A stretch of 64,000 nucleotides of DNA from an uncultured virus (IMG/VR IMGVR_UViG_3300045107_000066) (taxonomy: Duplodnaviria > Heunggongvirae > Uroviricota > Caudoviricetes). Under the pieces are notes generated by a model. The model made no database searches, was not told the origin of the DNA, and worked only from the letters and a program-made list of their open reading frames with translations. Made by a program: the position numbers and the translations under genes. Positions within the stretch are counted from its first letter, which is position 1, and the number at the start of each line of letters is the position of its first letter. Shown here one piece after another: positions 48,677 through 64,000 of the stretch. The stretch lies in IMG/VR virus record IMGVR_UViG_3300045107_000066. One strand, given 5' to 3'.

Positions 48677-48748
48677 AGCGACGTGCGGGAGTCGAACCCG
48701 CCTTAACCTACTTGGGAAGCAGGTGCCCAGCCGCTAGGCCAACGTCGC
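48677..48748 (-). tRNA. tRNA-Gly(CCC)
   Basis: CCTGC-TTCCCAA-GTAGG; U73. Confidence 0.92.
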
Positions 48749-49097
48749 ATTATTTGCAGATGGCGTATCCAATCGCCACCACCAGTCCGATCACCAGCAG
48801 GATGATCGTCACGCCTGCGATCAGCAGGCAGCCCAGGAGTCCCTGGAACAACCGGAATCCGCCTTCAATGAAGTCAACCGGGTCGTCCAGCGGGTTCGGC
48901 TCAGAGAAGCAACGTACCCCTGGCTGCATCCAACCGATCAACAAAAACGGTAGAATCCAAGTCATCGACATCCTCCGTGACTTTCGGACAGCCGAGTGCC
49001 TTGAAGCACGACCAACAGGCTGCCGTCATCTCGCCGTCTTTCTTGACGGCGAACTGGTCTGTGTAATCTTCACAGACTCCACAATTGTAACAAACGC

Positions 49098-49529
49098 TCA
49101 ACAACACCCCTTCACACCGCACTTGTCCGGGGCGAGGCAGGCAGTGTTCTTCAAACTCGTTATCAGGTTCAGTCCCCGGTTCTCCGTCAAATGAGTAGAG
49201 AACAACGAGTAGACCCCCAGCGTCTTTCCATCCGCCTGATACTCGACCGTCACTTCGGTATCGAGATCAATGAACTTGACGGCGTGCCGCAGAATGTCCA
49301 AAAACTTCTTCGCCTTCAGGCGATGATCCGTGTCGTTCGCCACCCAAATCTGGAGGGCACACGTTGTCGTCTCACGCATCGAGCCGCCGCAGTCCACAAA
49401 CTTCTTCGTAACCAACCCGACTTCCGTTAGATGGAAATGGGCCGGAGCGAAGCCTGCATCCGGGAAGTAGATGTTTACCGGCAGGTCGTCTGCACGAGAG
49501 AGTGCGTCAACCAGATCGATCAGTTTCAT
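49098..49529 (-). CDS. DUF6428-like protein
   Basis: HFHLTEVG, FVDCGG, QIWVANDTDHRL, TACLAPDKCG. Confidence 0.75.
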   Translation of the reverse strand: MKLIDLVDALSRADDLPVNIYFPDAGFAPAHFHLTEVGLVTKKFVDCGGSMRETTTCALQIWVANDTDHRLKAKKFLDILRHAVKFIDLDTEVTVEYQADGKTLGVYSLFSTHLTENRGLNLITSLKNTACLAPDKCGVKGCC

Positions 49530-49542
49530 AACAATTCCTAAG

Positions 49543-49613
49543 AGCGGGATAGGGGAATCGAACCCCTCTCTGTAGCTTGGAAGGCTACGGCACGGCCACT
49601 ATACCAATCCCGC
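49543..49613 (-). tRNA. tRNA-Gly(TCC)
   Basis: GTAGC-CTTCCAA-GCTAC; U73. Confidence 0.93.
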
Positions 49614-50335
49614 ATTATTCAATGTAAGGCCCGACGAATCCGCACTTCACACAGTAGAGGCAGGGCAAGTCGCCTTCTTCTTCTATGTGACCGCCCTCTT
49701 CAAAAAGCCGAGCCTTGCACTTCGGACATCGCTCGTCATCGCCTAACAGTTCACGCTTGATCTTGTCTTCAGGCCCGTACTTGATCCCGTTTTTGACGAA
49801 GTAAGGCATGATGTCCCAGCCTTTACTTGATGAGCATCGACGCCAGCCCGAGTAGCACCGCCATCAGTAGCACGATGATCCCGAACGTCGGCTTCGGCTC
49901 GACCTGGGCCTGCTTGTTCTCGTACTCTTCGGCACAGCGAGGGTCGTAGACGAGGTTGAAGGCCCAATCCAGGTCTTCTTCCGCCAGCCGACCCCAATCT
50001 TCGTTGAGTTCGTAGATCATGGCGAGGACTGCCGCCCTGGTGGCGACTTCTTCCTCGGGTGCTTCCTTTAGGATCAGGATGCCCGTGCGGATCGCATTCC
50101 TTACGTTATCCGGCACTATTGTCTACTCCATGACAAGGTTGAGCAGGGCTTCGCAGGCAAGCCAGATCACAGTGAAGACGACGAGCAGCAGGTACGGTAT
50201 CCACACTATGATGGCGAACGACCATATCTGCTTGGCGTATTCCTTAACCGGAGAGCCGTATTCTGGTGGCGTGATCCCACGTTTCAGATGGAACCAGAAC
50301 CACTTCAGGACACGCTTCATGCTCTCATCCTTAAG

Positions 50336-50408
50336 AGCGGGTGATGAGACTCGAACTCACGACATTCACGTTGGCAACGTGACGCTCTACCAACTGAGCT
50401 ACACCCGC
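50336..50408 (-). tRNA. tRNA-Gly(GCC)
   Basis: Canonical cloverleaf; TCACG-TTGCCAA-CGTGA. Confidence 0.96.
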
Positions 50409-50733
50409 ATTTACTTCGAATGCTCCCCATGCTCGACGTAGTATAACTCTTCGCCCAGGTCAGGGAACTTCTTCTTGTACTTATCGACCAGGGCGAGCAG
50501 CCGTCTGGTCTGAGCCATCTTCTCTTCGGCCTCGGTCGGCGTCGTCACGCTCTCGATAATCATGTGGACATCGACGAGTTGCCCGTCCATGTTCCAACGT
50601 ACCGTGAGCCGGTTCCCCACCAGGGTGACGCCGAACTCCTTACCGACCTTCTGCCTCATCTGTTCCAGAACATAAGCAACTTCCTTGCTATGTTCCATCT
50701 CGTAGACTGAAGGCATGTCAGACTCCGATTAAG

Positions 50734-50804
50734 AGCGGCATAGGAGAATCGAACTCCTGTCACTAGCATGGCAAGCTAGGGCACAACCACTATACCAATG
50801 CCGC
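50734..50804 (-). tRNA. tRNA-Gly(GCC)
   Basis: CTAGC-TTGCCAT-GCTAG. Confidence 0.92.
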
Positions 50805-50811
50805 ATCTGAG

Positions 50812-50883
50812 AGGCCCGAGTGGGAATCGAACCCACGATTGACGATTTTGCAGACCGCCGCCTTACCACTTGGCTACCGGGCC
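50812..50883 (-). tRNA. tRNA-Cys(GCA)
   Basis: GCGGT-CTGCAAA-ATCGT; U73. Confidence 0.95.
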
Positions 50884-50894
50884 ATCACTACTAT

Positions 50895-51356
50895 CTAAGT
50901 TATCACACCTGCTTTTTGTTCGCAAGACTGATGAGGACATTTCCCGTAAATGGCAATCGCCATATTACAGTTGTGACACAGCACCCGCAGGTCTTCTCTA
51001 ATCTCTTCTCTCCGCAACTTCAAGAACCAAGAGTAGGTGGAGTTTTGGTTTCTACCATACAACGCCCTTCTCTCAACGTTCCCGTCGTTGTTTTTGTGGT
51101 CTATGGCAAGGAACTCGACACGAGCTTCTTGACAACACTCACACTTGCCGCCGTATTTTTCAAGAACCTCGCACTTGATCTTGTGCCGATATTCTTTCTG
51201 TTTCGGCTTAACACGGTCAACGTGTTTGGCATTCCACTCTACAAAGTAACGAAGACACGCTTCGCACTTCTTTCTGCCTTCCTTTGGCTCAGCTTTACCG
51301 CATTTGTTACACAAGCCTGCGGCTTCTAGCTTTTGACGACGATCTGGACTTCCCAT
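50895..51356 (-). CDS. HNH-type endonuclease
   Basis: YGGKCECC, LAIDHKNNDG, VLCHNCN; N-terminal Zn finger. Confidence 0.8.
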   Translation of the reverse strand: MGSPDRRQKLEAAGLCNKCGKAEPKEGRKKCEACLRYFVEWNAKHVDRVKPKQKEYRHKIKCEVLEKYGGKCECCQEARVEFLAIDHKNNDGNVERRALYGRNQNSTYSWFLKLRREEIREDLRVLCHNCNMAIAIYGKCPHQSCEQKAGVIT

Positions 51357-51371
51357 GTCCTATCTATGCTT

Positions 51372-51758
51372 TCAAGTGCCGTTCGCACTTAAATCTTTAC
51401 GATTTGCCACCGTTATGTGAAACTTGTTTCTCCACCACGGGAACGGGGCAAGACCAAGTTCGACCCTGATCTCGCACAACCGCTGGCATTGCACATTCAG
51501 CCAGTAATACCGTTCGTCCCAGACGATCTCCGGGCTATACTCGATCTCAACCTCGTGACCGTCGTACTTCTTCCACACGTCCATGTTCGGCGGCTGTTCC
51601 CGCCGCACCACGCTGACGTGAGCCTGATACCGCTGCGGGTTCCGGGGCCACGCCCTCGGGATCAGTGAGCGGTAAAAGTCTGCGATGCCCTGATCGACAT
51701 TCAACACCACCCGATTCGTAGTCGGGCCGTATTCCAGAATGCCGACCGCCTTGTGCAT
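51372..51758 (-). CDS. 2H phosphoesterase-like protein
   Basis: Two Hx(S/T) motifs: AHVSVV and FHITVA. Confidence 0.65.
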   Translation of the reverse strand: MHKAVGILEYGPTTNRVVLNVDQGIADFYRSLIPRAWPRNPQRYQAHVSVVRREQPPNMDVWKKYDGHEVEIEYSPEIVWDERYYWLNVQCQRLCEIRVELGLAPFPWWRNKFHITVANRKDLSANGT

Positions 51759-52225
51759 CGTTCCTCACTTCAGGACGATGATCTCGTCCACAATCTCTGC
51801 CCCGCACGCCCTGGCGGTGCGGTAAATGTTCGTGGCGGCGTCAAACACCTTCGGCACGAACGTGTACCCTTTCTCTGTCTTCAGGAACATCAGGGAGTCG
51901 CCCATGATGCTGATGAGCTTGTTGCCCTCTTCCTTCGCCGCTTCGAGCGTGTCGAAGTAATGCGGCACGAAGTCGAAGCCCGTTACCGTCAGGTTGCCCT
52001 CTTTGCGGCTGCCCTGCTTGTAATACTTGGCCTTGAACCGTGCCTTGATGCGAGGTAGTTCTTCGATCATCGGCTCGTAGCTCCAGGGCTTGACCTTCTT
52101 GCCGGTCGCCTTCTCGTGTTCCCGGATGATCCGGTCGGCGACCAGAGTCATCGGGTCGCACGTCGTCTGTCCGTTCATGAACTCAATGTTCATTTGGCGG
52201 AACAGCGGGTCTGTTGTTCTCATAG

Positions 52226-52297
52226 TGACCCCGGTCGGACTCGAACCGACAACCTCGGAGTTAAAAGCTCCTTGCTCTGCCATTGAGCTACGGAGTC
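52226..52297 (-). tRNA. tRNA-Lys(TTT)
   Basis: GGAG-CTTTTAA-CTCC. Confidence 0.93.
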
Positions 52298-52483
52298 AGG
52301 TCACTAGCTCATCCAGCGTGCAGCCGTTGAAGCTGTCGAAGCACTTCTCGCAAACGTCGCCCCGGTCGAACGACCTGTCGAGCTTGACGCCGCAGTCGAT
52401 GCACCGTCGAAACAACCAGCGAATCCAGGCTTTGACCTTCCCGCACTCTGTCGGGGTAGAACCCATCTCGAACCAGCCCATAG

Positions 52484-52556
52484 TACCCCGTGTCGGGATC
52501 GAACCGACCGTCTTTCGATTAAAAGTCGAAGCCTTCACCGTTGTAGGAAACGGGGC
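52484..52556 (-). tRNA. tRNA-Lys(TTT)
   Basis: TTCGA-CTTTTAA-TCGAA. Confidence 0.88.
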
Positions 52557-52564
52557 GTGTAAAT

Positions 52565-52649
52565 TTAGTCGGGGACCAGGGAAGAAAGAGAATGTGCTTT
52601 CGCACATCATTAACAGTGATGTATTCCCTTTCAAGCATTCCCCGACTAA
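52565..52649 (-). ncRNA. candidate small structured RNA (AUGCU/CUGG family)
   Basis: 11-bp terminal stem; inner AAAGGGAAT/ATTCTCTTT stem; GTGC-GAAA-GCAC hairpin. Confidence 0.6.
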
Positions 52650-52650
52650 G

Positions 52651-52725
52651 AGCGGCTGCCCGGATTTGAACCGGAACCTCCATCTTGGCAAGATGGCGTG
52701 CAGAGGGCCACTACACCACAGCCGC
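52651..52725 (-). tRNA. tRNA-Gly(GCC)
   Basis: CCATC-TTGCCAA-GATGG. Confidence 0.9.
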
Positions 52726-52951
52726 ATGAGCCTTTCGGCTCTTGTATCAATCACCAATAATCATCAGGATCGGTGCCAGGGGCCACGCCACGAGGGACAG
52801 GCCGAACAGGAACAACCGACCACCCGGATTCATGTCGTACCACTCACGCTTCGACGCCATGAACACCGTCAGTCCGGCCCACAGGTACACCAGCACGAGA
52901 GCGATCCACATACTCGACTCCATTCGAGGTTTTACTGAATCCATCCGTCAG

Positions 52952-53024
52952 TGGTCTGTGCCGGGATCGAACCGGCCATCATCTGCTTAAGAGGCAGCGC
53001 CTTCACCATTGTAGGAAACAGACC
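52952..53024 (-). tRNA. tRNA-Lys(CTT)
   Basis: CTGC-CTCTTAA-GCAG. Confidence 0.85.
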
Positions 53025-53029
53025 TTCAG

Positions 53030-53102
53030 TACCCCGTGTCGGGATCGAACCGACCGTAACCTGATTAAGAGTCAGGCGCTTCACCATTGTAGCAAACGGG
53101 GC
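53030..53102 (-). tRNA. tRNA-Lys(CTT)
   Basis: CCTGA-CTCTTAA-TCAGG. Confidence 0.9.
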
Positions 53103-53844
53103 ATGTTTTGTTCAACTTCGCAACCATCGCCTTCACTTCCTTCTCGACGGCTTCCGTCTCGGCGGCTGACTTCTTGTAGGTGTCACCCACCACGAACTCA
53201 CCGCCGCTGACCCGATAGAACCCGGTCTTCTTCCCGTTGAACAGAAGGAAGAAGTACACTTCGTCCATGTAGTAGCCGTAGTCGTCCTTGCAGAACGTCT
53301 GCTTCTCGTAGGTGAACATCCTGTCCTCCTAGTGCGAGTAGCTGACGACCCGCAGTCGCTTGTTCTTCGGCATCGTGTTCTTGAACGCATTCAGCATCGC
53401 CAGGGCGATCACCGAGAACCTGTTCTCAGTCCGCTCGGTGTCAGCCACCAGGGCGGTAATCATCTCGTCCAGGGTGAACACGCCCAGGTAGTACCCGTAA
53501 GGGTCGCTGGTGATGTACCCGCTCTCGATGTCGTTCGCCAGTGTGCCCACGTCGCCGGGACAGGCGAGGTTCGCCAGTGCGTCTGGCGTCTCTGCCAGTT
53601 CTCGAAGAAGCTCGACCGCTTCCTCTTGTCGGTCAGGCGTCCGGGGCCAGAGGGCGAACGGCGGGTCGCCGTCACCTTTCTTCTTGATCCGGCTCTGCAC
53701 CAGATCGTACACCGGGCCTTCGCCGCACTTGCCGAGTTCGATCATGGCAAGTTCGGTGCCGGTATTCGGGTCGGCGTCTCGGTAGTGTTCTTCAACAACT
53801 ACAAGGCGGATTTCATATCCCACAGCCAACCCTCCGTGGCGAAG

Positions 53845-53917
53845 TGGAGTGTAAGGGACTCGAACCCATAACATCCTGCTTGCAAAGCAGGCGCTCTCCC
53901 AATTGAGCTAACACCCC
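53845..53917 (-). tRNA. tRNA-Ala(TGC)
   Basis: G3:U70; CCTGC-TTTGCAA-GCAGG. Confidence 0.95.
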
Positions 53918-53922
53918 GTCAG

Positions 53923-53994
53923 TGGACCGCCGGGGAATCGAACCCCGATCTTCTGCGTGCAAAGCAGACATGTTCCCGTTGTCACCAGCGGCCC
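53923..53994 (-). tRNA. tRNA-Ala(TGC)
   Basis: G3:U70; TCTGC-TTTGCAC-GCAGA. Confidence 0.92.
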
Positions 53995-54311
53995 GTTTTC
54001 AGTAGTTGAAGTCGTCGTCTACCTCTCTGTGGATCAACCAGTCCAGCAGAGCCATCACGGCGAACACTACAATCGCCGGGAGAATCAGTCCTTCCATTAC
54101 GAAATCCTTTTCGTTAGTGCGACTGGCTGGTTCGACCCAGCTATCACTACACTGCTTGTCGCCTTCGTGTATACCCTCCGGCGGACAGTGCGGCGATCTC
54201 CTCTTGCCGGAATGGCGAAGGTGTCACACCACACTCGCAGTCGCATTACATGTCCGTGATGTAAACAAACAGCACGGCCATCATCACGAGAACTTCCATT
54301 GTTCTCTCCAG

Positions 54312-54385
54312 TAGCGGTGGTCGGGATCGAACCGACGTACTCCTCGTTATGAGCAAGGCGCTTGAACCAACTCAGCTACACCGCC
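54312..54385 (-). tRNA. tRNA-Met(CAT), elongator type (Ile2 not excluded)
   Basis: CCTTG-CTCATAA-CGAGG. Confidence 0.9.
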
Positions 54386-54669
54386 ATCACTAACTCCGGG
54401 ATCGTCCCGAAGATGTTTCGCTTGAACTCGTCAGGGTAGTATACCCGATACTCACCTGGGAGCAAGTCCCTTTTTGCTAGGTAGGCTGCCACCGTGCGGT
54501 GGTGCCCGTTGTTTATGACCCAAAGTCCCCCGTCGAGGTTCACGATCTCGATGGGATGGTCGCAGTCGTCGAAGACTCCTCCTTCTTCAACAAACCTGAC
54601 CATCTCCGGGATTTGGTCCCGACGCTTCAAAGTACGCTGCGTCGTCCTCAGCGTTTCGAAAGTAAACAA
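54376..54669 (-). CDS. ParB/Srx-like small domain protein
   Basis: PIEIV...INNGHHRTVAAY. Confidence 0.55.
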   Translation of the reverse strand: MFTFETLRTTQRTLKRRDQIPEMVRFVEEGGVFDDCDHPIEIVNLDGGLWVINNGHHRTVAAYLAKRDLLPGEYRVYYPDEFKRNIFGTIPELVMAV

Positions 54670-54670
54670 G

Positions 54671-54743
54671 CGAGCCTGACGGGAGTCGCACCCGCAACCT
54701 TCCCCGTGACAGGGGGATGTTCTACTAACCGAACTCCAGGCCC
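54671..54743 (-). tRNA. tRNA-Asp(GTC)
   Basis: TCCCC-CTGTCAC-GGGGA; G73. Confidence 0.88.
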
Positions 54744-54978
54744 ATTTTCATTCAGGAAGCATATCGTGGACGATACCCTTCCACCCGCACCGGCACTCCG
54801 AGCGGTTCTCATCCTTGTAGTCTTCCTCCCGCCCGATCACCATGATGTAGCCCATGTAAGTCTGGGTCGTCGATCTGGTGGCCTTGCAGTCGGGGCATCT
54901 GGCGTGGGACTTGTAGTACAACTCCCTTGCCAGCTTCGCCTTTGCCCTCATGTCTTCAATGTCGTATTCTTCCATAAG

Positions 54979-55052
54979 CGGCCATACGGGGAATCGAACC
55001 CCGACCCACTGCTTGACAAGCAGGCATGCAGAAACCACTACACCATATGGCC
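54979..55052 (-). tRNA. tRNA-Asp(GTC)
   Basis: CTGC-TTGTCAA-GCAG; G73. Confidence 0.9.
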
Positions 55053-55361
55053 GTATTCAAACACCAACAATCCTCAACACCTTCGAGTCCAGCGAACCGG
55101 ACACTTCCACTTCGGGCCGCTCGAACTCCCGAGCGATGTACCTGAAGTCGGGATGGTAGCCCGCACCCGGATGCCGAGGCTCGATCTTCACGAACAACCT
55201 TGCCCCACCCTTGAACCCGCCGTGGCCGTCGTCGTCCCCGTCGCCGGGGAAGAAGATGAACTTCTCGCCGACCTTCAGGTCACGAACCGTAATCGGTTGT
55301 GACAGGGTGTGCTGAAGGAAGTGCAACCCGTCGAGTACACCAGGGTGCATGACGTTCTCCG

Positions 55362-56021
55362 TTAGGCGTCAATCGTTTCTCGGAACAACTTCTTGAACGG
55401 CTTGCTGACCTTCACTAAGGGCACCTTGAAGTACCGTTTCAAGAACTCCGGGCTGCTGGTCGAGAGGTAGGCGTGTATCTCGTCCTTCAGGACTTTCCTA
55501 CAGTAGCCGCCACTCCCGAGCAGTTTGTTCTCCATCTGGGTCCGGGCCTTCTCGGGCATCTCGGCGACCAGCTTCAGCATCTTCTTCTTGTACGACCCGT
55601 TCAGGTGGTACAAGCCGTGTGCCACTTCATGAGCCAGCGTTGACTCGTAGCTCCACTCGGCGTCCGGTTCGTAGTGGCCGATCACATAGAACGGCTCGCT
55701 GCCTCGGACCTGATCTGCGAGCAGGTCGTACAGCATCTTCTCCTTCTCCAGCAGCATGCCCTCGAAGGACTTGAAGAAGTTCCGAACCACCTGCCCCGGC
55801 ACGTTGAACCCGCCCCAATCGAGCGTGTAAGTGAAGTTCCCCGTCTCCTGGGCGTAGCGATCCATGTACTCTTCGAGAGTGAAGACGCATCCCCGAATGC
55901 CCCGGAAGGGCGACTCGTAGAACTCCTGCAATCTCAGGAACGTCGAACACGTCTCGTACTGGTTTCTAAATCTTAGCGACCAGATGCACTTGCGAAGTTC
56001 CTTCTTCTCAACCTCGAACAT
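55362..56021 (-). CDS. hypothetical phage protein with HExxH motif
   Basis: FLRLQEFYESP, WGGFNVP, LAHEVAHGLY, DEIHAY. Confidence 0.7.
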   Translation of the reverse strand: MFEVEKKELRKCIWSLRFRNQYETCSTFLRLQEFYESPFRGIRGCVFTLEEYMDRYAQETGNFTYTLDWGGFNVPGQVVRNFFKSFEGMLLEKEKMLYDLLADQVRGSEPFYVIGHYEPDAEWSYESTLAHEVAHGLYHLNGSYKKKMLKLVAEMPEKARTQMENKLLGSGGYCRKVLKDEIHAYLSTSSPEFLKRYFKVPLVKVSKPFKKLFRETIDA

Positions 56022-56047
56022 CCATCACGTCCTTGTGATATCTTAAG

Positions 56048-56119
56048 CTCCCCCGCCTGGACTCGAACCAGGAACCTTCAAGTTAACAGCTTGCCGCTCT
56101 ACCATTGAGCTACGGAGGA
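56048..56119 (-). tRNA. tRNA-Asn(GTT)
   Basis: CAAG-CTGTTAA-CTTG; G73. Confidence 0.94.
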
Positions 56120-56512
56120 ATACATTTCAGAGCATGAACTTGATCGCATCGAACCGCACGTTCACGTCGCTCGACTTCAGGTTCCTCAGTGCCTCCTTCT
56201 CATGCTCAGGAAGGGAGTTGAAGAACTCGCCCGGCTTTCCGGTGTCACGCCTGTTGCCCTTCAGGAAGTAGCCCTGCCAGAAGGCACGCTCGGCGGTTTC
56301 AATGAGGACTTTGTTAGGGTCCATGTTCAACCTCTAAGTGGGGAGGGTTGGACTCGAACCAACGCCCTTTCCTGATCCACAGGAACGCTCTACTCGGCTT
56401 TCGCCGGTCCACAGGCCGTACCTGTGAGCCGTCTGAGCTACCTCTTCGTTTGCGAGATAGGGAAACTAGCCGATACCCTGCTAGTTTTTAGTGGGTGGAA
56501 ACCCATCTCAAG

Positions 56513-56585
56513 TCGGCGGTAAGGGACTCGAACCCCTGATTTCTTGTGTGTAAGACAAGCGCATTGGCCGCTATGCTAACCGCCG
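56513..56585 (-). tRNA. tRNA-Val(TAC)
   Basis: CTTGT-CTTACAC-ACAAG. Confidence 0.93.
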
Positions 56586-56962
56586 TTTAATCTCTCTTCT
56601 TCGTGTATCCTGGCGTGGCAGTTGCCACAAACCACGATGCACTTATCCATTTCTGCTTGAAGCTTCTCGATGCTCACATGGTTCCTCACCATCAACGAGA
56701 TCGAGTCATCTTTATCACCCTTGCAGTGATGAAAGTGCAGACAAGCCGGATGCTTCTCAATGTACTCCGGGTGGTAGTCCACACACTTCACACAAGGATG
56801 CTGGAGCTTGTACTGAAGAACGTAGTCGAGATTCCGCTTCAAGCTGATCTCTCGATGTTTCTTCGCATTCTCCTTCTTGGCTTTTGCGTTCTCAGGATCA
56901 GCGTACCACTTCTGGTGATACGCCTTCTGGTAAGCCTTCTTCTTCTCTTTACTATATGGCAT
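56576..56962 (-). CDS. HNH-type endonuclease
   Basis: PCVKC, LHFHH, EMDKCIVVCGNCHARIH. Confidence 0.8.
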   Translation of the reverse strand: MPYSKEKKKAYQKAYHQKWYADPENAKAKKENAKKHREISLKRNLDYVLQYKLQHPCVKCVDYHPEYIEKHPACLHFHHCKGDKDDSISLMVRNHVSIEKLQAEMDKCIVVCGNCHARIHEEERLNGG

Positions 56963-57007
56963 ACCATATAGTAGGGTCTTACACTACATTTTTGCAGTGT
57001 AAATCTT

Positions 57008-57349
57008 TCAAATGTCGGGCATGTCTACTGTCTGCCCCGCCAGCGGGTGACTGCAATCACCCAAGAACTCGATCCGGCCGTCTCGAATGTACGAGTGGCA
57101 CTGATAGCAGTTGAACGGTGCCGGGTCGTCCGGCCTTTCCGCATTGAAGGTACACCAGCAGCTTCCCTGGTGGTTCGGGATGTAGTGCCCGCACCGGACC
57201 AGGAGGCTCGGGGAGAAGGTCGGCTTCTCCATGTTCCCGTTGAAGTCCCAGCCTGGGACGGCAACGTGGTGACTGTCTTTACAACCCGGACACTGGAACC
57301 CGTAAGTTACCTTCTCCGCAGTTTGACTAACAACGCTCAACTTCGCCAT
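57008..57349 (-). CDS. DUF6527-like protein
   Basis: FQCPGC, WDFNGNMEKPTFSPSL, CHSYIRDGRIEFLGDCSH. Confidence 0.8.
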   Translation of the reverse strand: MAKLSVVSQTAEKVTYGFQCPGCKDSHHVAVPGWDFNGNMEKPTFSPSLLVRCGHYIPNHQGSCWCTFNAERPDDPAPFNCYQCHSYIRDGRIEFLGDCSHPLAGQTVDMPDI

Positions 57350-57351
57350 AG

Positions 57352-57422
57352 TTGCCCAAGAAGGATTCGAACCTTCCCTAACTGGTTCAGAGCCAGTCGT
57401 GCTACCGCTACACCATCGGGCA
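57352..57422 (-). tRNA. tRNA-Gln(CTG)
   Basis: ACTGG-CTCTGAA-CCAGT. Confidence 0.93.
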
Positions 57423-57428
57423 ATAAAG

Positions 57429-57501
57429 CTGCGGAGGAAGGAGTCGAACCTTCATTAGCCTCGTTCAAAGCGAGGGTTCCTACCAATTAGAAGACTCCGC
57501 A
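57429..57501 (-). tRNA. tRNA-Gln(TTG)
   Basis: CCTCG-CTTTGAA-CGAGG. Confidence 0.93.
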
Positions 57502-57745
57502 ATGTTACATGTCGGGAGACATCCGTTGACCGCTCCTCGGCAACTCCCGCTTCTTCTCCGGCTTGTCGGCTGGCTTGAAGGCGAACAACAGTGCGACCAA
57601 GATCGCCAGCGTCACCAGGAAGACCAACAGACCCGCCATCCATGTGTCCCAGAAGCTCGGCTTCCGGGGCGGCGTGTAACCGCCGCATTTCTGGGCGGCA
57701 ATCACCGCCCCGATGTTCGTGTAGAAAGACATCCTGTCTCCTTAG

Positions 57746-57816
57746 TTGCCCATGATGGATTCGAACCATCACTAACTGATCCAAAGTCAGTCGTGCTACC
57801 ATTACACCAACGGGCA
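57746..57816 (-). tRNA. tRNA-Gln(TTG)
   Basis: ACTGA-CTTTGGA-TCAGT. Confidence 0.93.
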
Positions 57817-58246
57817 ATCAGTAAGTGTTTCCGCCGCAGTTGGTGCAGTAGCCGCCTCCGAACTGGTAGTACACATAGTTCGGGTTCTTACACACGCACC
57901 AGCCGTCTTTGTCCGGCTTGGGCTTCTCCACTTCCTTAACGGGAGGGTGGAGGGCGTTCTGGATCGCCTGGGTTGCCAGTTGGGTCAACTCCTCGGGCGT
58001 CCGGCCATCGTCCTCGACCGTTACCGTGATCTTAGCCATGATACCGTCTCCTGATCTCGCAGTACCCGCACGAGCGATTCTCGCACATCCAGGTGTTGCT
58101 GTCAATCAGGCGGTGCATCTCGCTGTTACACTTGGGGCACCGGCCGAGCTTGTACAACATCATCGCCACGAAGTAGGCGGCGAAGATTAAGACTGCGGCC
58201 CAAAGTATCGGCTGACTCTCCATAAACACATCCTTGTGTTCTAAAG

Positions 58247-58332
58247 CTGCCAGGACTGGAATCGAACCAGTGTAGGGTTTCCCCACGGGCGGTTAACAGC
58301 CGCCTAAGACTACCAACAGTCAACCCCTGGCA
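58247..58332 (-). tRNA. tRNA with GTT (Asn) anticodon and long variable arm
   Basis: GGCGG-CTGTTAA-CCGCC; variable hairpin GTGGG-GAAAC-CCTAC; G73. Confidence 0.8.
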
Positions 58333-58339
58333 AAATATA

Positions 58340-58404
58340 AGGGAGACGAGTTTGTTGACGGAGTGGTTACAAACCTGATGTACACCCTGTCGAGCATTCT
58401 CCCT
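58340..58404 (-). ncRNA. candidate small structured RNA (AUGCU/CUCG family)
   Basis: AGGGAGA-ATGCT...CTCG-TCTCCCT. Confidence 0.5.
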
Positions 58405-58406
58405 AG

Positions 58407-58479
58407 CTGCGTGGGTAGGATTCGAACCTACATTGTCCTAGTTCAGAGCCAGGATTCCTACCAATTAGAAGACCACGCA
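58407..58479 (-). tRNA. tRNA-Gln(CTG)
   Basis: CCTGG-CTCTGAA-CTAGG. Confidence 0.93.
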
Positions 58480-58589
58480 AGATGAACCTCGGTTGATATC
58501 CGCTATCCCGCCAGTAGCACCGAAGGTTCTTGATTCAGGTGACAGCCAAAGTCGGAACTCAGTCAAGACGCCTGAATCGAAGGCGGAAG

Positions 58590-58661
58590 TAGCCCATAAG
58601 GGAGTCGAACCCTTGTTGCCGGATTGAAAGTCCGGTCGCCTAGCCGTTAGCGGAATGGGCC
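58590..58661 (-). tRNA. tRNA-Glu(TTC)
   Basis: CCGGA-CTTTCAA-TCCGG. Confidence 0.92.
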
Positions 58662-58813
58662 GCTTGTTTCTCTTCGTACACCGCATCCACTTCCTCACCA
58701 TGAATGCGGCAGTACGTTTTCTTATCCCTCCACACGAGGCAGAGGAGGCAGGTTATCAGGTGTCCGAAAGGGCACTTGAAGCCCGCCAAGTATGTTTCCA
58801 TACCATATAGTAG

Positions 58814-58885
58814 TGCCTCGGAGCGGTTTCGATCCGCCTTCTCTTGGTTGAGAACCAAGCGTCCTAGCCACTAGACGACCGAGGC
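58814..58885 (-). tRNA. tRNA-Glu(CTC)
   Basis: CTTGG-TTCTCAA-CCAAG. Confidence 0.9.
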
Positions 58886-59035
58886 ATTTAGCTGTCTGAC
58901 ACGTCACTACTCTCCAGCAGCCCGATGCCCAGCTAAGGCAACCGTTTTTGGTTTCGTGCGTGCAGAGAACCGTCTTAAGCCGGTCCTATCCTACTCACGG
59001 CTTTCGCCGCTCTCGTTCTGCCGAAGCAGCATGAG

Positions 59036-59107
59036 TACCGCCGAGGGGTTTCGATCCCCCTTCTCCTGCTTGAAAGGCAAGCGTCCTAGCCACTAGACGA
59101 CGGCGGC
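59036..59107 (-). tRNA. tRNA-Glu(TTC)
   Basis: CTTGC-CTTTCAA-GCAGG. Confidence 0.9.
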
Positions 59108-59114
59108 ATAACAG

Positions 59115-59186
59115 TGACCCCACGGAGAGTCGAACTCCGGTTATCCGGTTGAGAACCGGGTTTCCTAACCACTAGAAGATGGGGCC
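59115..59186 (-). tRNA. tRNA-Glu(CTC)
   Basis: CCGG-TTCTCAA-CCGG. Confidence 0.92.
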
Positions 59187-59189
59187 ATT

Positions 59190-59287
59190 TGGTGTAACAT
59201 GGTTGGATTCGAACCAACGCTAGGCCAACCTTACCGGCTCACGCCGTTGGGGGTTCGATACCGCTTCTCATTACGGCAACACGTTAC
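59190..59287 (-). ncRNA. tRNA-like RNA with 8-bp acceptor stem, encoded CCA and no anticodon loop
   Basis: GTAACGTG/CATGTTAC-A-CCA; GTTGG-TTCGAAT-CCAAC; CGGC-GTGA-GCCG hairpin in place of the anticodon. Confidence 0.7.
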
Positions 59288-59293
59288 ACCAAG

Positions 59294-59364
59294 AGCCGGT
59301 ACAGTGAATCGAACACTGGTTTGCTGTTTACGAGACAGCCGTTCTGCCACTGAACTATACCGGC
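59294..59364 (-). tRNA. tRNA-Thr(CGT)
   Basis: GCTGT-CTCGTAA-ACAGC. Confidence 0.94.
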
Positions 59365-59472
59365 ATTGTGATACATCACGTCTGACTGCCTTCCAGCTTT
59401 AGGAAGGCCGGACATCGAACCCGTTATACGCCTCCCGTCAGAGCATTTGTATAAAGGCGATGATGTATCAAG

Positions 59473-59543
59473 AGCCGGTAGAAGGAATCGAACCCTCACT
59501 CTCTGCTTACAAGGCAGATTCGCTACCATTACAACATACCGGC
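59473..59543 (-). tRNA. tRNA-Thr(TGT)
   Basis: TCTGC-CTTGTAA-GCAGA. Confidence 0.9.
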
Positions 59544-59968
59544 ATAAACCGCAGCTTCTTGTAACCAAACTGCTTCGCTGTTTTTCGGCGATGACAGTTG
59601 GCACATCTTACATCACACTTAGCGATCTCTTCCTCCAATCGCTCGATGCTGCCATTAAGTGCGACGTTGCACACGTCCTTGTCTTTGTCCCCTCGGTGGT
59701 CAAACTCCAACACCACCGGGTCTGATTCACCACAATCCACACAGGGGTGATCCTTGAGGTAGTTCAGGATGTACTGGACATTTCTGTCACGGCACTCGCT
59801 GACCGACTTCCTGATGTTCTCCCTGCGTTCAGGATTCTGATCGTAGTGTTTCTTCTGTGCGATCCTGCCGCACGCTTTGCAGTAACGCTGCTTCCCGTCT
59901 GCGTTACCTTTGTTGTTCCCAAACTCATCGAGCGGCTTGGGTAGTTGGCATGTAGCACACTTCTTCAT
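59507..59968 (-). CDS. HNH-type endonuclease
   Basis: KKCATC...YCKAC Zn finger; HPCVDCGESDPVVLEFDH; KCDVRCANCHRRKT. Confidence 0.85.
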   Translation of the reverse strand: MKKCATCQLPKPLDEFGNNKGNADGKQRYCKACGRIAQKKHYDQNPERRENIRKSVSECRDRNVQYILNYLKDHPCVDCGESDPVVLEFDHRGDKDKDVCNVALNGSIERLEEEIAKCDVRCANCHRRKTAKQFGYKKLRFMPVCCNGSESAL

Positions 59969-60475
59969 GAAGGTATCTATGTCTTGTAACTCAACTTTCC
60001 GTTACAAGATTTTACCAACTGCTGACGTACATGCGGAACCATTCCGTGTAGGTCAGACCCAACTCCTCGTGCGGTTCCAATTCCCGCTCGACTTCTGCTG
60101 CTGCTTCCTTTGCTGGGGTGATCTTACACCCCGCACTCACCATGAAATCCACCAAGTTCGCCAGGGTGAAGGTGTCCGGCACTTCGAACTTGGCCGTCTC
60201 TTCACCAACCGTCATCGTGAACGTCTTCATGTTACTCATCCGTGAGTGGCTTTCAGGTACGCCTCGATACACTGCACCTTCTCGCCGAAGTTACAGCGGC
60301 CCAGGAACGCCCATTTTTGTTTCGCAGCTTCCTCCGATCCGGTCGCCCGGATCAGGTGGGCCTTGAACTTCGCTACCAGATCATCCGGCAGCCCGAGAAA
60401 CACGTCTTCTTCCATGCTTCCCCCATGTCGGTGTCATCGTAACACACGGCATGTTTCTTTACAACCGAAATCGAG

Positions 60476-60546
60476 TCAGGGATGGCAGAGTCGAACTGCC
60501 GCCACTACTTTCCAAAAGTAGGATGCTTCCGTAACAACTATCCCTG
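60476..60546 (-). tRNA. tRNA-Pro(TGG)
   Basis: CTACT-TTTGGAA-AGTAG; C1:G72. Confidence 0.85.
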
Positions 60547-60666
60547 ATGGTCGCCGGTGCAGTTCGCAACGCTGCTCCAACCCCCTAGCTTGGGGCCGTT
60601 CTATCGCCCCATGACAGACGGGGTAACTTTCCCGCTGGTGGAGCAAGCATTAAACTAACCGGCAAG

Positions 60667-60964
60667 CCCGAGTGGAGGGAGTTGAACCCCCGCCTCCGGC
60701 CCATAACGGCCGGTGCGCTAACGTTACGCCACACCCAGGATAACGCCGGAGGGGAAGGATTCACACCTTCACTAGCCGTAGTAGGTGGCCGTGCTGACTG
60801 TTACACTACCACTCCGGTTAAGCTCGGGAACCTGGACTTGAACCAGGACTTGCGACTAATGCGCCGCCGTGCTGACTTACACTACTCCCGAATATACCAG
60901 TACGGAGTCGAACCGTTCTTCCCCCTGGCCGGGGGCGTGCAGACCGTTACACTAAAATCTGGCA
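60667..60964 (-). ncRNA. tandem cluster of four tRNA-like RNAs with abnormal anticodon loops
   Basis: Units at ~60667-60739, 60746-60817, 60823-60891 and 60894-60964; each has D and T arms; loops of 8, 9, 6 and 5 nt. Confidence 0.7.
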
Positions 60965-60981
60965 AGTTCTTGCAAGAACAG

Positions 60982-61052
60982 CAGGTGCGGAGGGATTCGA
61001 ACCCCCACGGACAGTTTTGGAGACTGTAATGCTACCATTACATCACGCACCT
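60982..61052 (-). tRNA. tRNA-Trp(CCA)
   Basis: ACAGT-CTCCAAA-ACTGT; G73. Confidence 0.94.
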
Positions 61053-61057
61053 ATCAG

Positions 61058-61140
61058 TGACCTGCCGGGGACTTGAACCCCGAGTGCCATTACGGCGTCC
61101 CGTTAAGAGCGGGAGGCTATGCCACTACAGCTTGCAGGCC
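61058..61140 (-). tRNA. tRNA with CTT (Lys) anticodon and long variable arm
   Basis: TCCCG-CTCTTAA-CGGGA; variable hairpin GCC-GTAAT-GGC. Confidence 0.8.
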
Positions 61141-61492
61141 ATTTATCGACTAGCGGAAATTCACGCCTTTGGCACCGCCGATTGAGTGCCCGCCGCTCTT
61201 TCTGGTGGTCATCGCTTGCCACAGACTTATTGCTTCTGGCTTTCGTCTGCTTGGCTCGCACCAGTCCTTCGTTTGCGGAATTTGCGCTTACAGCTTTACC
61301 CAGACCCTCTCGAATCTGGAACCGCCAACTCACTACCAACTTCGGGTCGTCCCTCGTTGTATCGACACTTCACGCAGAAGAGAGGTTCGGTACTTTCCCA
61401 ATCTTCTTTCGTGATTCCGTTGCCTTGTTTCACAATCACCCGGCAGCCGTTACACAGGATCGCTCCCTTGCCGCCGTTGAACTTCTTGATCC

Positions 61493-61894
61493 TCACCACC
61501 TGTACTTCCGGTCGTTCCATACCTTGTCTTCCAAGACGATGTTGCAGTTCAGGCACTTCGCCATGTTCCCGTTCCGCACCGGCGTTTTAGCACAGAAAGG
61601 ACACGGGTACAAGTACAACTTACGCTTGGCCTCTTCCTCGGCCCACTTCCTTTTGACTTCCTTGTAATTGATCCCGGCGTCCTCGTGGACCGGCACTAAC
61701 GTCGCCGACCCCAGGCCGAACTCGCCATCGACGTACTTCTCGATGTACTCGTCGGCTTCCTCCTCGGTGTCGAAGAAGATGTCCCGCTCGTCCTTGCCGG
61801 AGCCGTAAGTCGCCTCGCTGGTGCTGACGACTTCGCCCCTCTCGTAGTGGTTGATCGAAACCATCCACTTCTCGACGATTTTCCTTTCGCTCAT
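61493..61894 (-). CDS. hypothetical protein with C-terminal Zn ribbon
   Basis: AGGAG RBS before MSERKIV; PCPFC...CLNC. Confidence 0.7.
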   Translation of the reverse strand: MSERKIVEKWMVSINHYERGEVVSTSEATYGSGKDERDIFFDTEEEADEYIEKYVDGEFGLGSATLVPVHEDAGINYKEVKRKWAEEEAKRKLYLYPCPFCAKTPVRNGNMAKCLNCNIVLEDKVWNDRKYRW

Positions 61895-61909
61895 GGCGAA
61901 CTCCTTAAG

Positions 61910-61984
61910 TCGGGGAGACAGGATTTGAACCTGCGACCTCTTGTATCCGAAACAAGCGGGAACTCCAAGCTTCCCCACTCCCCG
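61910..61984 (-). tRNA. tRNA-Pro(CGG)
   Basis: CTTGT-TTCGGAT-ACAAG. Confidence 0.92.
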
Positions 61985-62034
61985 ATGAGATGTTTTACGA
62001 CATCGCTGTCGGCCAGTAATCGACTGGCGGCGAG

Positions 62035-62109
62035 TCAGGGCGGGCGGATTCGAACCGCCGATCTCTTGCATCCCGAGCAAGCGGATTAACCAAGCTTTCC
62101 CACGCCCTG
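62035..62109 (-). tRNA. tRNA-Pro(GGG)
   Basis: CTTGC-TCGGGAT-GCAAG. Confidence 0.9.
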
Positions 62110-62118
62110 ATAGCGGAG

Positions 62119-62191
62119 TCTGGGTGGTGGGACTCGAACCCACGATTACCGGCTTCCGACGCCGGGAGGATAGCCACTTCCGCACACCCAG
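62119..62191 (-). tRNA. tRNA-Pro(CGG)
   Basis: CCGGC-GTCGGAA-GCCGG. Confidence 0.85.
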
Positions 62192-62197
62192 ATTGAG

Positions 62198-62278
62198 CAG
62201 ACCCGTGAGGAATCGAACCCCATAGCACAAAGGCAGTGGTTTTGGAGGCCACAGCAGTTCCCAGACTGCACCGGGTCT
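62198..62278 (-). tRNA. tRNA-Trp(CCA), non-canonical (5-bp D stem, long variable region)
   Basis: GCAGT-CTGGGA-ACTGC D arm; CTCCAAA loop; 13-nt variable region; G73. Confidence 0.7.
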
Positions 62279-62283
62279 ATCAG

Positions 62284-62351
62284 TGGAGTAGAGGGGAGTT
62301 GAACCCCTTATCCGTGCTTGCAAGGCACAGAGCTTACCCGTAAGCTACCCC
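62284..62351 (-). tRNA. tRNA-Ala(TGC) with reduced D arm
   Basis: G3:U70; TGTGC-CTTGCAA-GCACG; 68 nt. Confidence 0.75.
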
Positions 62352-62494
62352 GTCAAAGAAAAGGTGTTCTCGGCTGGTTAAACTAACTCACTTTCCACAA
62401 GCCGCCACGCTTGCGGTTCATCCCTTTCGGGGGCTGCGAGTGCTGGCTGACCATCCCCAGCAATTCCACCCTAACCTGGGTGGCGTTTTTTAAG

Positions 62495-62568
62495 TCGGGC
62501 TACAAGGAGTTGAACCTTGACCTACGCTTTATCAGAGCGTCGTGCAGAAGCCGCTACACCATAGCCCG
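62495..62568 (-). tRNA. tRNA-Ile(GAT)
   Basis: ACGCT-CTGATAA-AGCGT. Confidence 0.92.
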
Positions 62569-62576
62569 TTCTCAAG

Positions 62577-62651
62577 TCGGCCCACCTGGAATCGAACCAG
62601 GACTTGCTGCTTATCAGACAGCCGTGCAGTAAACCACTACACTATGGGCCG
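62577..62651 (-). tRNA. tRNA-Ile(GAT)
   Basis: GCTGT-CTGATAA-GCAGC. Confidence 0.92.
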
Positions 62652-62652
62652 G

Positions 62653-62728
62653 TGGTGGGGAAGGAAGGACTCTCACCTTCAGCAGCAATGAACATGCTGC
62701 CATTCTGTTACGCCGAATCTTGCTCCCC
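62653..62728 (-). ncRNA. tRNA-like RNA with encoded CCA and atypical arms
   Basis: GGGGAG/TTCCCC-A-CCA; GCAGCA-TGTTCAT-TGCTGC; T loop TGAGAGT. Confidence 0.5.
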
Positions 62729-62748
62729 ATGTTCCTCTTTCGAGGAAG

Positions 62749-62821
62749 GGTGTGCGAGGAGGATTGAACTCCCACTTACTGCTCCACAAACAGTCGTGCA
62801 GACCACTACACTACGCACACC
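62749..62821 (-). tRNA. tRNA-His(GTG)
   Basis: G-1:C73; ACTGT-TTGTGGA-GCAGT. Confidence 0.92.
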
Positions 62822-62850
62822 ATCAATCTGTAAGATTCTCATCTTACAAG

Positions 62851-62925
62851 GGTGGTCGAGGGGAGTCGAACCCCCACTTCCTGATTCACAGTCAGGCGTG
62901 CAGAAACCGCTACACTACGACCACC
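62851..62925 (-). tRNA. tRNA-His(GTG)
   Basis: G-1:C73; CCTGA-CTGTGAA-TCAGG. Confidence 0.94.
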
Positions 62926-62931
62926 ATAAAG

Positions 62932-63002
62932 TCGGCGATAGAAGAATCGAACTTCTGTTTCCTGCGTGTCATGCAGATGTCCTACCATTGAACGAATCGC
63001 CG
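62932..63002 (-). tRNA. tRNA-Val(GAC)
   Basis: TCTGC-ATGACAC-GCAGG. Confidence 0.9.
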
Positions 63003-63007
63003 TTCAG

Positions 63008-63075
63008 TCCCCCGCACAGGTGTCGAGCCTGTTAGCCGTGGTTCGAAGCCACAGTACCGAGCCGTCGGGCAGGGG
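63008..63075 (-). tRNA. tRNA-Arg(TCG) with reduced D arm
   Basis: TGTGG-CTTCGAA-CCACG; CCGA-CGGC-TCGG; 68 nt. Confidence 0.65.
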
Positions 63076-63131
63076 ATACAGGCCGAACCTCGACATCATG
63101 CCGGGTTCGGCCGTATTACGTTTCTCACCGA

Positions 63132-63167
63132 GTTGTCAAAGACCCACCCGCCGGGTTAGGGCAGGCG
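63132..63167 (-). promoter_or_regulatory. rRNA-leader-type boxB hairpin plus boxA-like antitermination site
   Basis: CGCCTGCC/GGCGGGTG hairpin immediately followed by GGTCTTTGACAAC. Confidence 0.65.
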
Positions 63168-63174
63168 TTTCAAG

Positions 63175-63245
63175 TATCCCGTACAGGAGTCGAACCTGTT
63201 CTTGCAGCTTCGGAGGCTACCGTGCTTCCAGCACACTCACGGGAC
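63175..63245 (-). tRNA. tRNA-Arg(CCG)
   Basis: GTAGC-CTCCGAA-GCTGC. Confidence 0.92.
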
Positions 63246-63259
63246 ATCTTCACTAACAG

Positions 63260-63331
63260 TATCTCGTGCAGGAGTCGAACCTGCTCTTACAGTTTCGTAG
63301 ACTGTCGTGCTATCCATCACACCCACGAGAC
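63260..63331 (-). tRNA. tRNA-Arg(ACG)
   Basis: ACAGT-CTACGAA-ACTGT. Confidence 0.93.
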
Positions 63332-63410: not shown

Positions 63411-63454
63411 ATCCGCTCGCCGCAACCAGTCGGTGTCACGTCACCGACAAACGC

Positions 63455-63554
63455 AAAAACGGGATCGGCTCAGGCAATCATAACTCTTGCCTGAGCCGAT
63501 CCCGTTTTGGTGATCTCTTTGGCTCAGGCTTTGGCTTTTTAGCCACCCTGAGCC
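63455..63554 (-). promoter_or_regulatory. transcription attenuator (alternative hairpins plus terminator)
   Basis: Four segments GGCTCAGG / GCCTGAGCC / GGCTCAGGC / GCCTGAGCC; the 3:4 stem is ~22 bp and ends in TTTTT. Confidence 0.75.
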
Positions 63555-63564
63555 GTCTATGCGG

Positions 63565-63708
63565 TCACTCAGAGTAGCGGGCGATGGTATCCCAACCTTG
63601 CTTCTCGACACGATGTCCCTGTTCGGGATTCGTAATGCGAGGGCACGGGCGCACGTTGGCCGTATTGGCTTTCCGCTGCATCGCTACTCTCTGGGTGAAG
63701 GTAAACAT
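63565..63708 (-). CDS. putative attenuator leader peptide (47 aa)
   Basis: MFTFTQRVAMQRKANTANVRPCPRITNPEQGHRVEKQGWDTIARYSE; stop codon ~10 nt before segment 1. Confidence 0.55.
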   Translation of the reverse strand: MFTFTQRVAMQRKANTANVRPCPRITNPEQGHRVEKQGWDTIARYSE

Positions 63709-63750
63709 TTGATTCTCTAGTTCTCTGTCGCAACGAGCGACAGGGTTAAG

Positions 63751-63826
63751 TGCGGGGTGCAGGATTTGAACCTGCGATCTCTTGGTTATGAGCCAAGTGA
63801 GATGGGCCAGACTTCTCCAACCCCGT
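63751..63826 (-). tRNA. tRNA-Met(CAT), initiator-like
   Basis: A1xC72 mismatch, CGGGG acceptor, CTTGG-CTCATAA-CCAAG. Confidence 0.85.
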
Positions 63827-63832
63827 GCATGT

Positions 63833-63860
63833 ATATTAGCGATCCCTTTTCTTTTTGCAA
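63833..63860 (-). promoter_or_regulatory. sigma70-type promoter of the tRNA operon
   Basis: TTGCAA-17 nt-TAATAT ending 6 nt upstream of tRNA-fMet. Confidence 0.75.
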
Positions 63861-64000
63861 CACCATTTCCGATTTTTGTCGAAAATGTTTCGGGATCAGG
63901 TTGCCGTGCGTCGTTCATCTCCGTCGCACACCACTATAGACGCCGCCGGTTCGGGGAGGTTCGCACCTTTTCCGAAAAAATTCCAGACGGTGCTTTGGGC

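Follow-up and report, generated by a model that had tools for sequence, protein, structure and literature searches.

A candidate ribosome-mediated attenuator with an array-matched leader ORF ahead of a large phage tRNA array

Introduction

What are the tRNA arrays of large phages for? Codon compensation and the replacement of host tRNAs destroyed during infection have long been weighed against each other (PMC10264068). The locus described here raises the question anew. In a 64,000-nucleotide stretch of an uncultured Caudoviricetes virus (IMG/VR record IMGVR_UViG_3300045107_000066), hereafter the window, a tRNA array is preceded by a leader with a short upstream ORF (uORF) and an intrinsic terminator. 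The original prediction, made from the letters of the DNA, read this leader as a four-segment attenuator gating the whole array in response to translation stress. Does the array lie behind such a gate, and what would open it?

In the his, trp, phe and thr attenuators, mutually exclusive helices and an intrinsic terminator are set by the position of the ribosome in a leader ORF. These ORFs carry runs of one amino acid, and the genes under control encode biosynthetic enzymes.

Results

The window and its leader

The window is a piece of a large phage; its HNH nucleases and tRNA nucleotidyltransferase match phage families, and the uORF is on record in a contig of up to 169 kb. Comparison of its first 20 kb with five leader-bearing IMG/VR virus records gave DNA matches in 4 of them, in short pieces of 65-88% identity. 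Planctomycetota is the commonest phylum of a cluster that includes one window protein (score 0.95), which gives a hint, and only that, of a planctomycete host. The related records each encode 2-4 sigma factors (5/5 records), and none of the five had a match to RNA polymerase beta, so the host core polymerase is likely to transcribe them. The window has 52 tRNAs by ARAGORN, every one on the minus strand, and the array holds no tRNA for Leu, Ser, Tyr or Phe. Translation-related cargo lies at 10879-11757, 19055-20302 and 24063-24590, and comprises what we take, from the look of the sequence, to be a GluRS-like fragment and a NADAR-like protein, and the nucleotidyltransferase (a PHROG match).

The tRNA, ORF, segments 1 to 4 and U tract of the original prediction were all recovered on the minus strand where it had placed them (Table 1), and segment 1 does begin 10 nt after the stop codon. 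A 12-bp helix, in which the last uORF codons (segment 0) pair with segment 1, had been overlooked. Segment 1 can alternatively pair with segment 2 (8 bp, −14.6, with an inner 5-bp hairpin), and segment 2 with segment 3 (9 bp, −18.0). Folding of 63580-63440 gave −76.4 kcal/mol (z −10.7), a value that 0 of 200 shuffles equalled. A scan for strong minus-strand intrinsic terminators found no other between 63508 and 26853, and only ~45 nt separate the terminator from the first tRNA-like gene. Both results agree with the predicted gating of the whole array, an extent that we infer rather than observe.

Table 1. Elements of the leader and of the array behind it, in the order of transcription.
Feature	Position	Strand	Remarks
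Promoter-like motif GYGAAC-N18/19-TCTATA (non-sigma70)	63935..63964	-	sole window match; conserved in relatives
Weak sigma70-like site TTGCAA-16-TAATAT	63833..63860	-	8/12 match
tRNA-Met(CAT), upstream of the gate	63826-63750	-	ARAGORN; Rfam RF00005, 58.3 bits
7-bp hairpin between tRNA-Met and uORF start	63725..63743	-	fold −12.5
uORF, 47 codons, ATG start	63708-63565	-	codons matched to the array
Segment −1	63682..63690	-	perfect 9-nt complement of segment 0; inverted repeat
Segment 0 (last uORF codons), partner of segment 1	63567..63578	-	12 bp, −18.9 kcal/mol
Segment 1, partner of 0 or 2	63542..63554	-	part in the original prediction: 63554-63547
Segment 2, in 1:2 (anti-antiterminator) or 2:3 (antiterminator)	63529-63521	-	pairing computed
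Segment 3	63497-63489	-	core of terminator hairpin
Segment 4	63475-63467	-	core of terminator hairpin
U tract	63459-63455	-	part of the terminator
Intrinsic terminator (3:4 plus U tract)	63449..63508	-	perfect 22-bp hairpin 63508-63456, −42.3 kcal/mol
First gated element: degenerate tRNA-like gene, ACG anticodon	63343..63411	-	cloverleaf-like fold; weak tRNA-clan match, E 0.028
tRNA array (gated)	42727..63331	-	49 ARAGORN tRNAs; interspersed HNH and small ORFs
boxA-like sequence	63133..63142	-	single window match, early in the array

In the leader region Rfam at gathering score matched the tRNA alone, with no T-box or other leader; at E up to 5 it gave just sub-threshold hairpin matches over the terminator. 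PHROG and Atlas had no match for the uORF, whose Shine-Dalgarno sequence is weak. Its frame is open upstream through the tRNA-Met, giving 117 aa from an ATG at 63918 (63918-63565), as in protein P0006; stops interrupt this frame in the related loci L013 and L044, so the extension is probably due to chance. Segment −1 could keep the gate closed in the absence of a loading ribosome. This role is not general, because in the folding model helix 0:1 without a ribosome is reduced to 4 pairs in the window and stays at 9-12 pairs in five relatives.

At the head of the leader, the sigma70 promoter of the original prediction is present at its place, but with a match that lies under our scan bar of 9/12, and it is absent from the scan list. 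Similar sites were read by eye upstream of the tRNA-Met in L013 and L343. Of the five related records, four carry the second promoter-like motif, perhaps ECF-like, each a single time at the head of the array, with 0 control matches; G001 has another site 1.1 kb downstream, inside the array. Both promoter-like sites of the window are located before the gate. In 6/6 relatives, too, the uORF comes after a tRNA-Met. That of the window had been called initiator-like; two rather than three G-C pairs adjoin its anticodon loop, so initiator identity is not established. The hairpin that follows it shows three compensatory double changes in one contig of run X18; a boxB-like reading was dropped, as the hairpin is not kept in all members.

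Further elements were seen within the array. ARAGORN did not call its first, tRNA-like gene. The sequence that we take to be boxA-like is not significant alone (33/100 shuffles contain one); across array loci, some of which overlap, it is on the sense strand in 9/23 against 1 antisense. At 60960-60664 on the minus strand, four tRNA-like genes depart from the norm in their anticodon loops, which measure 5-8 nt and in some cases lack U33; one reads TTA, and these genes are possibly decoys or pseudogenes. Two structured non-tRNA elements on the same strand, 60662-60548 (−51.4 kcal/mol, ending in ACCA) and 62490-62360 (−45.0 kcal/mol), have no Rfam match at gathering score. The long-variable-arm tRNAs (Leu, Ser, Tyr) are nearly absent from the arrays of the window (42727-63331) and of L411-L421, where most others have 2-5 copies. 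Away from the array, a 92-nt tRNA-Ile(TAT) was called at 30670-30761, and Ile(TAT) calls or tRNAs of similar length also occur in G053. CTA-anticodon tRNAs (ARAGORN 'Pyl'), possibly amber suppressors, are found outside the arrays in L427 and L431 (G053, G001).

Conservation of the leader in related phages

Viral loci were fetched with patterns drawn from the window tRNAs. Six related records (L013, L262, L044, L342, L343 and L038) have the layout tRNA-Met, uORF, segments, terminator and array, with uORFs of 39-46 codons; the L262 peptide is 87% identical to that of L013. The heart of the original prediction, a terminator/antiterminator competition coupled to a uORF ahead of the array, is thus conserved in related phages, where it had suggested looking: leader and pairing chain are present in all six. 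Helices 0:1, 1:2, 2:3 and 3:4 are the top or near-top helices around the stop in the window and in every relative, with 0:1 and 2:3 split into shorter pieces in L342, and L343 keeps the chain with different letters. The stop is UGA in 7/7 members, and in the relatives' equivalent of helix 0:1 it is paired to segment 1. Shuffling the 100 nt upstream gave no chain as good in 300 trials (window, L013, L262, L044) or in 1000 (window, L342, L343), L038 not being among the shuffled members. When 84 viral hairpins sharing the core were scored, the two relatives alone came out below −11.

The terminator covaries: across six members, double changes are found at 9/15 pairs, and 0/500 shuffles scored as high. 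For helices 0:1 and 2:3, covariation on a MAFFT alignment in which L343 is misplaced was not significant (1 pair, 76/500 shuffles). Contigs of runs X5 and X6 (~97% alike) have segments 0-3 unchanged among the matches listed, one terminator pair changed from G-C to G-U and one synonymous change in the uORF; a more distant X18 contig has an in-frame 3-nt insertion in the uORF. Together with the codon match described below, these two changes hint indirectly at translation of the uORF. The RNA run X18 also contains promoter-side DNA and is therefore no sign of expression.

Exact segment patterns retrieved mostly unrelated sequences, family members making up 2/98, 2/23 and, in a metagenome scan, 0/16 of the matches; two further exact matches (2/2) were unrelated chance hairpins. 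A peptide-pattern locus search gave 50 matches and 0 confirmed members, and a uORF peptide profile recovered 0/5 true members (G001, G003 and G005 among those missed). Since the profile misses true members, the count of the family is too low and the peptides show weak homology. A genome-collection scan with the promoter and tRNA-Met pattern gave 33 matches, none with a tRNA array. Protein searches with the uORF returned four to five short relatives without genomic context; P0005, P0007 and P0008 were judged chance.

Codon content of the uORF

For the codon analysis we defined the core of the uORF as codon 6 to the fifth codon from the end (codons 6-43 in the window); the five codons cut from the 5′ end were a post hoc choice, while the 3′ trim follows the folding model. 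The window core covers 15/15 of the non-Met amino acids served by the array and 0/4 of those absent from it. No background window out of 4380 matched the array as well. Array tRNAs can read 37/38 core codons (background 76.8%), 27/28 array anticodons are sampled, and the core has 31 distinct codons (background mean 24.1). Of the 47 codons of the whole uORF, 35 are distinct, and 19 amino acids are represented. It has no single-amino-acid run, as the original prediction had noted; the general stress sensor proposed there is too weak a description, as the uORF is specifically matched to the tRNA content of the array.

The relatives follow the same rule. The arrays of the window and of five relatives (20-40 kb counted per related record) hold no tRNA-Leu, -Ser or -Tyr, and that of G054 holds a single Leu and a single Ser; G053 and G054 also carry one Leu tRNA each ahead of the leader. 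Leu, Ser and Tyr together account for 1/208 core codons in six members (L262, a near copy, omitted), against 17.4% in phage ORFs (14 window ORFs), and for 13/256 codons of the untrimmed uORFs (P 3e-9). The last four codons are where these residues are tolerated. In the pooled six members, the core contains 86/88 array-served and 6/26 unserved amino acids, and Phe enters the core only in the two members with an array tRNA-Phe. The fit is looser in L044, whose core leaves the array's one Leu and one Ser tRNA unsampled and is equalled by 24% of background windows, and in L038, whose core uses Ala, Arg, Val and Tyr, not found in the 20 kb of array counted. Since the members are kin, the P values suggest more independence than there is. 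The motif G-H-D-N was also considered as a queuosine-codon or arrest motif, a possible reading that is not needed here, as the sampling of every tRNA type accounts for the recurrence of the rare residues W, C and H. To judge from the sequences, the uORF appears to be a codon checklist matched to the array.

A modelled folding switch

The switch was modelled by staged folding with barriers in six members, the ribosome being assumed to cover −12 to +15 relative to the P site. Helix 0:1 formed when the ribosome was upstream of the last ~3-7 codons and was lost beyond, in 6/6 members run. When segment 0 was free and segment 3 out, 0:1 plus 2:3 had an advantage of 4.9-11.5 kcal/mol over 1:2; a ribosome at the stop brought the two to within 2.5 or let 1:2 win. 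The barrier from 0:1 to 1:2 was 10.8-15.1 kcal/mol, and that from 1:2 to the antiterminator, for a ribosome at the stop, 8.7-21.3 kcal/mol, lowest in L013. In the model, the leader behaves as a bistable, first-come switch, and a ribosome reaching the stop would turn the array off, a stall upstream turning it on.

Equilibrium calculations qualify this picture. In the window with segment 2 out, 1:2 beats 0:1 (−26.9 versus −20.6), and in L044 and L342 it does so at every ribosome position; since 1:2 usually wins at equilibrium as soon as segment 2 has emerged, read-through requires kinetic trapping. With segment 3 out and the ribosome at the stop, 2:3 and 1:2 are about level in the window (−30.2 versus −30.0). 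Equilibrium scans of the window revealed no ribosome-dependent switch, and its barrier from antiterminator to terminator is only 9.0.

The direction of the switch is the point on which we part from the original prediction, which had a ribosome stalled near the end of the leader switch the array on by covering segment 1. In the model, a ribosome in the last 3-7 codons frees segment 1 and leads to termination. Segment 1 starts 8-17 nt past the stop in 7/7 members, outside the footprint of a terminating ribosome or right at its edge.

Leaders of unrelated arrays

With our own filter, an upstream terminator was found at 19/44 distinct array starts. Many have a simpler form of leader, in which the uORF ends 23-33 nt before the stem and its last codons are complementary to the 5′ arm. 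In these two-helix leaders the antiterminator strand falls inside the uORF or at its end, where a terminating ribosome would block it. A short ORF with an antiterminator accompanies 13/22 array-head terminators and 3/52 others (P 1.7e-6), in a comparison that omits loci fetched by terminator-like patterns and includes some kin or overlapping loci. In several leaders the terminator is 8-20 nt from the tRNA.

All 20 amino acids are present in 12 of 13 uORFs of unrelated arrays (31-56 codons), where 0.1-8% per ORF is the background. These thirteen were picked by position, L078 (near copy), L377 (without antiterminator) and L037 (not examined) being omitted and the longer of two ORFs counted in L042; about four pairs among them are related, and the loci, found via window tRNA motifs, are not a random sample. 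They serve as a positive control for the codon match: their Leu, Ser and Tyr content is 22%, and each locus has at least one tRNA for Leu, Ser, Tyr or Phe. The two-helix leaders with all-20 uORFs are L016, L017, L031, L033, L042, L043, L055, L061, L063, L065, L067 and L071, and they sit just upstream of unrelated phage or mobile tRNA arrays.

Seven cultured-phage regions were scanned; six had no clear case, and Vibrio phage nt-1 gave one candidate. There (HQ317393.2; L441 4382-4560), an unannotated 37-codon ORF with 19 amino acids is followed 29 nt later by a terminator, then the array. Its antiterminator is weak, and one tRNA-Met lies 3 kb upstream.

Discussion

We propose, with a probability of roughly 0.8, that the leader is a ribosome-mediated transcription attenuator which ties the expression of a backup tRNA array to the supply of tRNAs. 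The RNA polymerase of the host would transcribe the tRNA-Met and the leader. A ribosome that translates the uORF and reaches its stop in time would melt 0:1, allowing 1:2 to form and 3:4 to terminate, and the array would remain off. A pause at a core codon would let 0:1 persist and 2:3 form, and transcription would enter the array. With a checklist that spans almost all codon classes decodable by the array and hardly any others, the shortages detected would be those that the array may cure. The likely trigger is loss of host tRNA, by an anticodon-nuclease defence or infection-driven decay; in vivo, new array tRNAs would restore translation and shut the gate again.

Three other explanations must be weighed. 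The same switch could be a general sensor of translation rate or amino-acid starvation, or a timer of the infection cycle, the codon match being secondary; anatomy would be the same and only the trigger would differ. The model is triggered by any mid-ORF stall, the composition of whiB7 uORFs makes them sensitive to many amino acids and antibiotics (10.1101/2023.06.02.543512), and in Anabaena the tRNA array reacts to numerous antibiotics that act on the ribosome (PMC8421152). Yet nothing in a general sensor would call for leaving out just those amino acids that the array lacks, or for acquiring Phe together with tRNA-Phe, and amino-acid starvation would presumably not be cured by extra tRNA. 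We hold this to be improbable, if the least so of the three. A little less credible still is the logic of the original prediction, with four segments and a ribosome stalled at or near the stop covering segment 1 so that 2:3 forms, a sensor of slow termination or late stalls. The spacing of merely 8 nt in L013 and L262 and 10 nt in the window, the 8.7 barrier of L013 and the universal UGA speak for it; the spacing of 12-17 nt in L044, L342, L343 and L038 speaks against it, it leaves the conserved 0:1 helix without a purpose, it does not sit well with the tolerance for Leu, Ser and Tyr in the last four codons, and in the two-helix leaders the terminating ribosome blocks the antiterminator strand.

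It is also conceivable, but very doubtful, that the terminator is bypassed by a protein antiterminator or downstream promoters, the uORF being a small gene or spacer and the repeats REP-like or by-products of duplication. CTCAGG/CCTGAG hairpins are common (nearly all of the 98, 23 and 16 pattern matches are unrelated), sigma70-like sites occur at 60464 and 58105 and a promoter-like site within the G001 array, and the boxA-like site suggests protein-assisted elongation. Against this, L343 has preserved the chain while changing its letters, the codon match and the all-20 uORFs of unrelated arrays are left unexplained by repeats and by a small protein alike, and the short terminator-to-tRNA gaps of several leaders leave no room for a separate promoter. 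We therefore retain the attenuator responding to tRNA supply.

How does this candidate attenuator relate to known systems? Its uORF has each codon class about once and no run, tRNAs lie downstream, and a segment over the stop codon extends the pairing to a five-segment chain; it is thus not a member of the his/trp type. Closer in logic is whiB7/wblC of Actinobacteria, in which efficient uORF translation leads to the terminator and stalling to the antiterminator, and whose M. smegmatis uORF has every amino acid except Cys (10.1101/2023.06.02.543512). Both couple translation to a terminator, with uORF composition setting what is sensed. However, whiB7/wblC controls a host transcription factor and the phage leader a tRNA array, with a uORF matched to the anticodons of the gated genes themselves; no sequence relation was seen, and the two work alike without being of one family. 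The B. subtilis vmlR leader combines uORF stalling with an anti-antiterminator/antiterminator/terminator cascade (PMC9226507), and E. coli toiL senses broad stress by translation attenuation and Rho (PMC12121999); both control antibiotic-response protein genes, whereas the phage leader precedes a tRNA array.

The Anabaena trn L-array is a long, silent tRNA array induced by translational stress (PMC8421152), its initiation being controlled by the DNA-binding repressor TrcR (PMC8421152, PMC10272220). In the main text of PMC8421152, 'attenuat', 'leader' and 'terminat' occur 0 times. That array is chromosomal or plasmid-borne and repressor-controlled, unlike the phage array behind its attenuator-like leader, and a TrcR-type tandem repeat over −10 sites is absent from the repeat families of 63300-64000. 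Phage tRNAs act in counter-defence against retron-Eco7 and PrrC (PMC11555353) and through anticodon-loop evasion (PMC10264068), and PARIS provides a further such context (PMC11464382). The likely purpose is common, namely to replace host tRNAs cut by defence nucleases; the cases in PMC11555353 and PMC10264068, as far as those texts go, involve strong promoters or resistant tRNAs, not expression conditional on a sensor. Searches of the open-access literature turned up neither an attenuator controlling a phage tRNA array nor a uORF matched to such an array. Compared with known attenuators, what appears to be new is a uORF codon inventory matched to the tRNA array it would gate.

We lean towards a wider view, in which many large phages audit the host tRNA pool with a 'pangram' leader ORF, its codons having evolved to suit the tRNAs that the phage carries, and transcribe the array only when the audit fails, an inducible and self-limiting counter-defence against tRNA-cleaving immunity. 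If true, at least two architectures exist, the five-segment one of the window and the two-helix one of unrelated arrays, and uORF content would predict which tRNAs a phage can rescue. A short all-amino-acid ORF, a terminator and a tRNA array make a searchable signature, and such a leader may serve as a compact biosensor for tRNase defence systems. The purpose of the arrays becomes testable with a reporter and depletion of single tRNAs. A tRNA-shortage sensor tuned to its own array would argue that phage tRNA arrays are on-demand rescue kits, and not constitutive helpers of codon bias.
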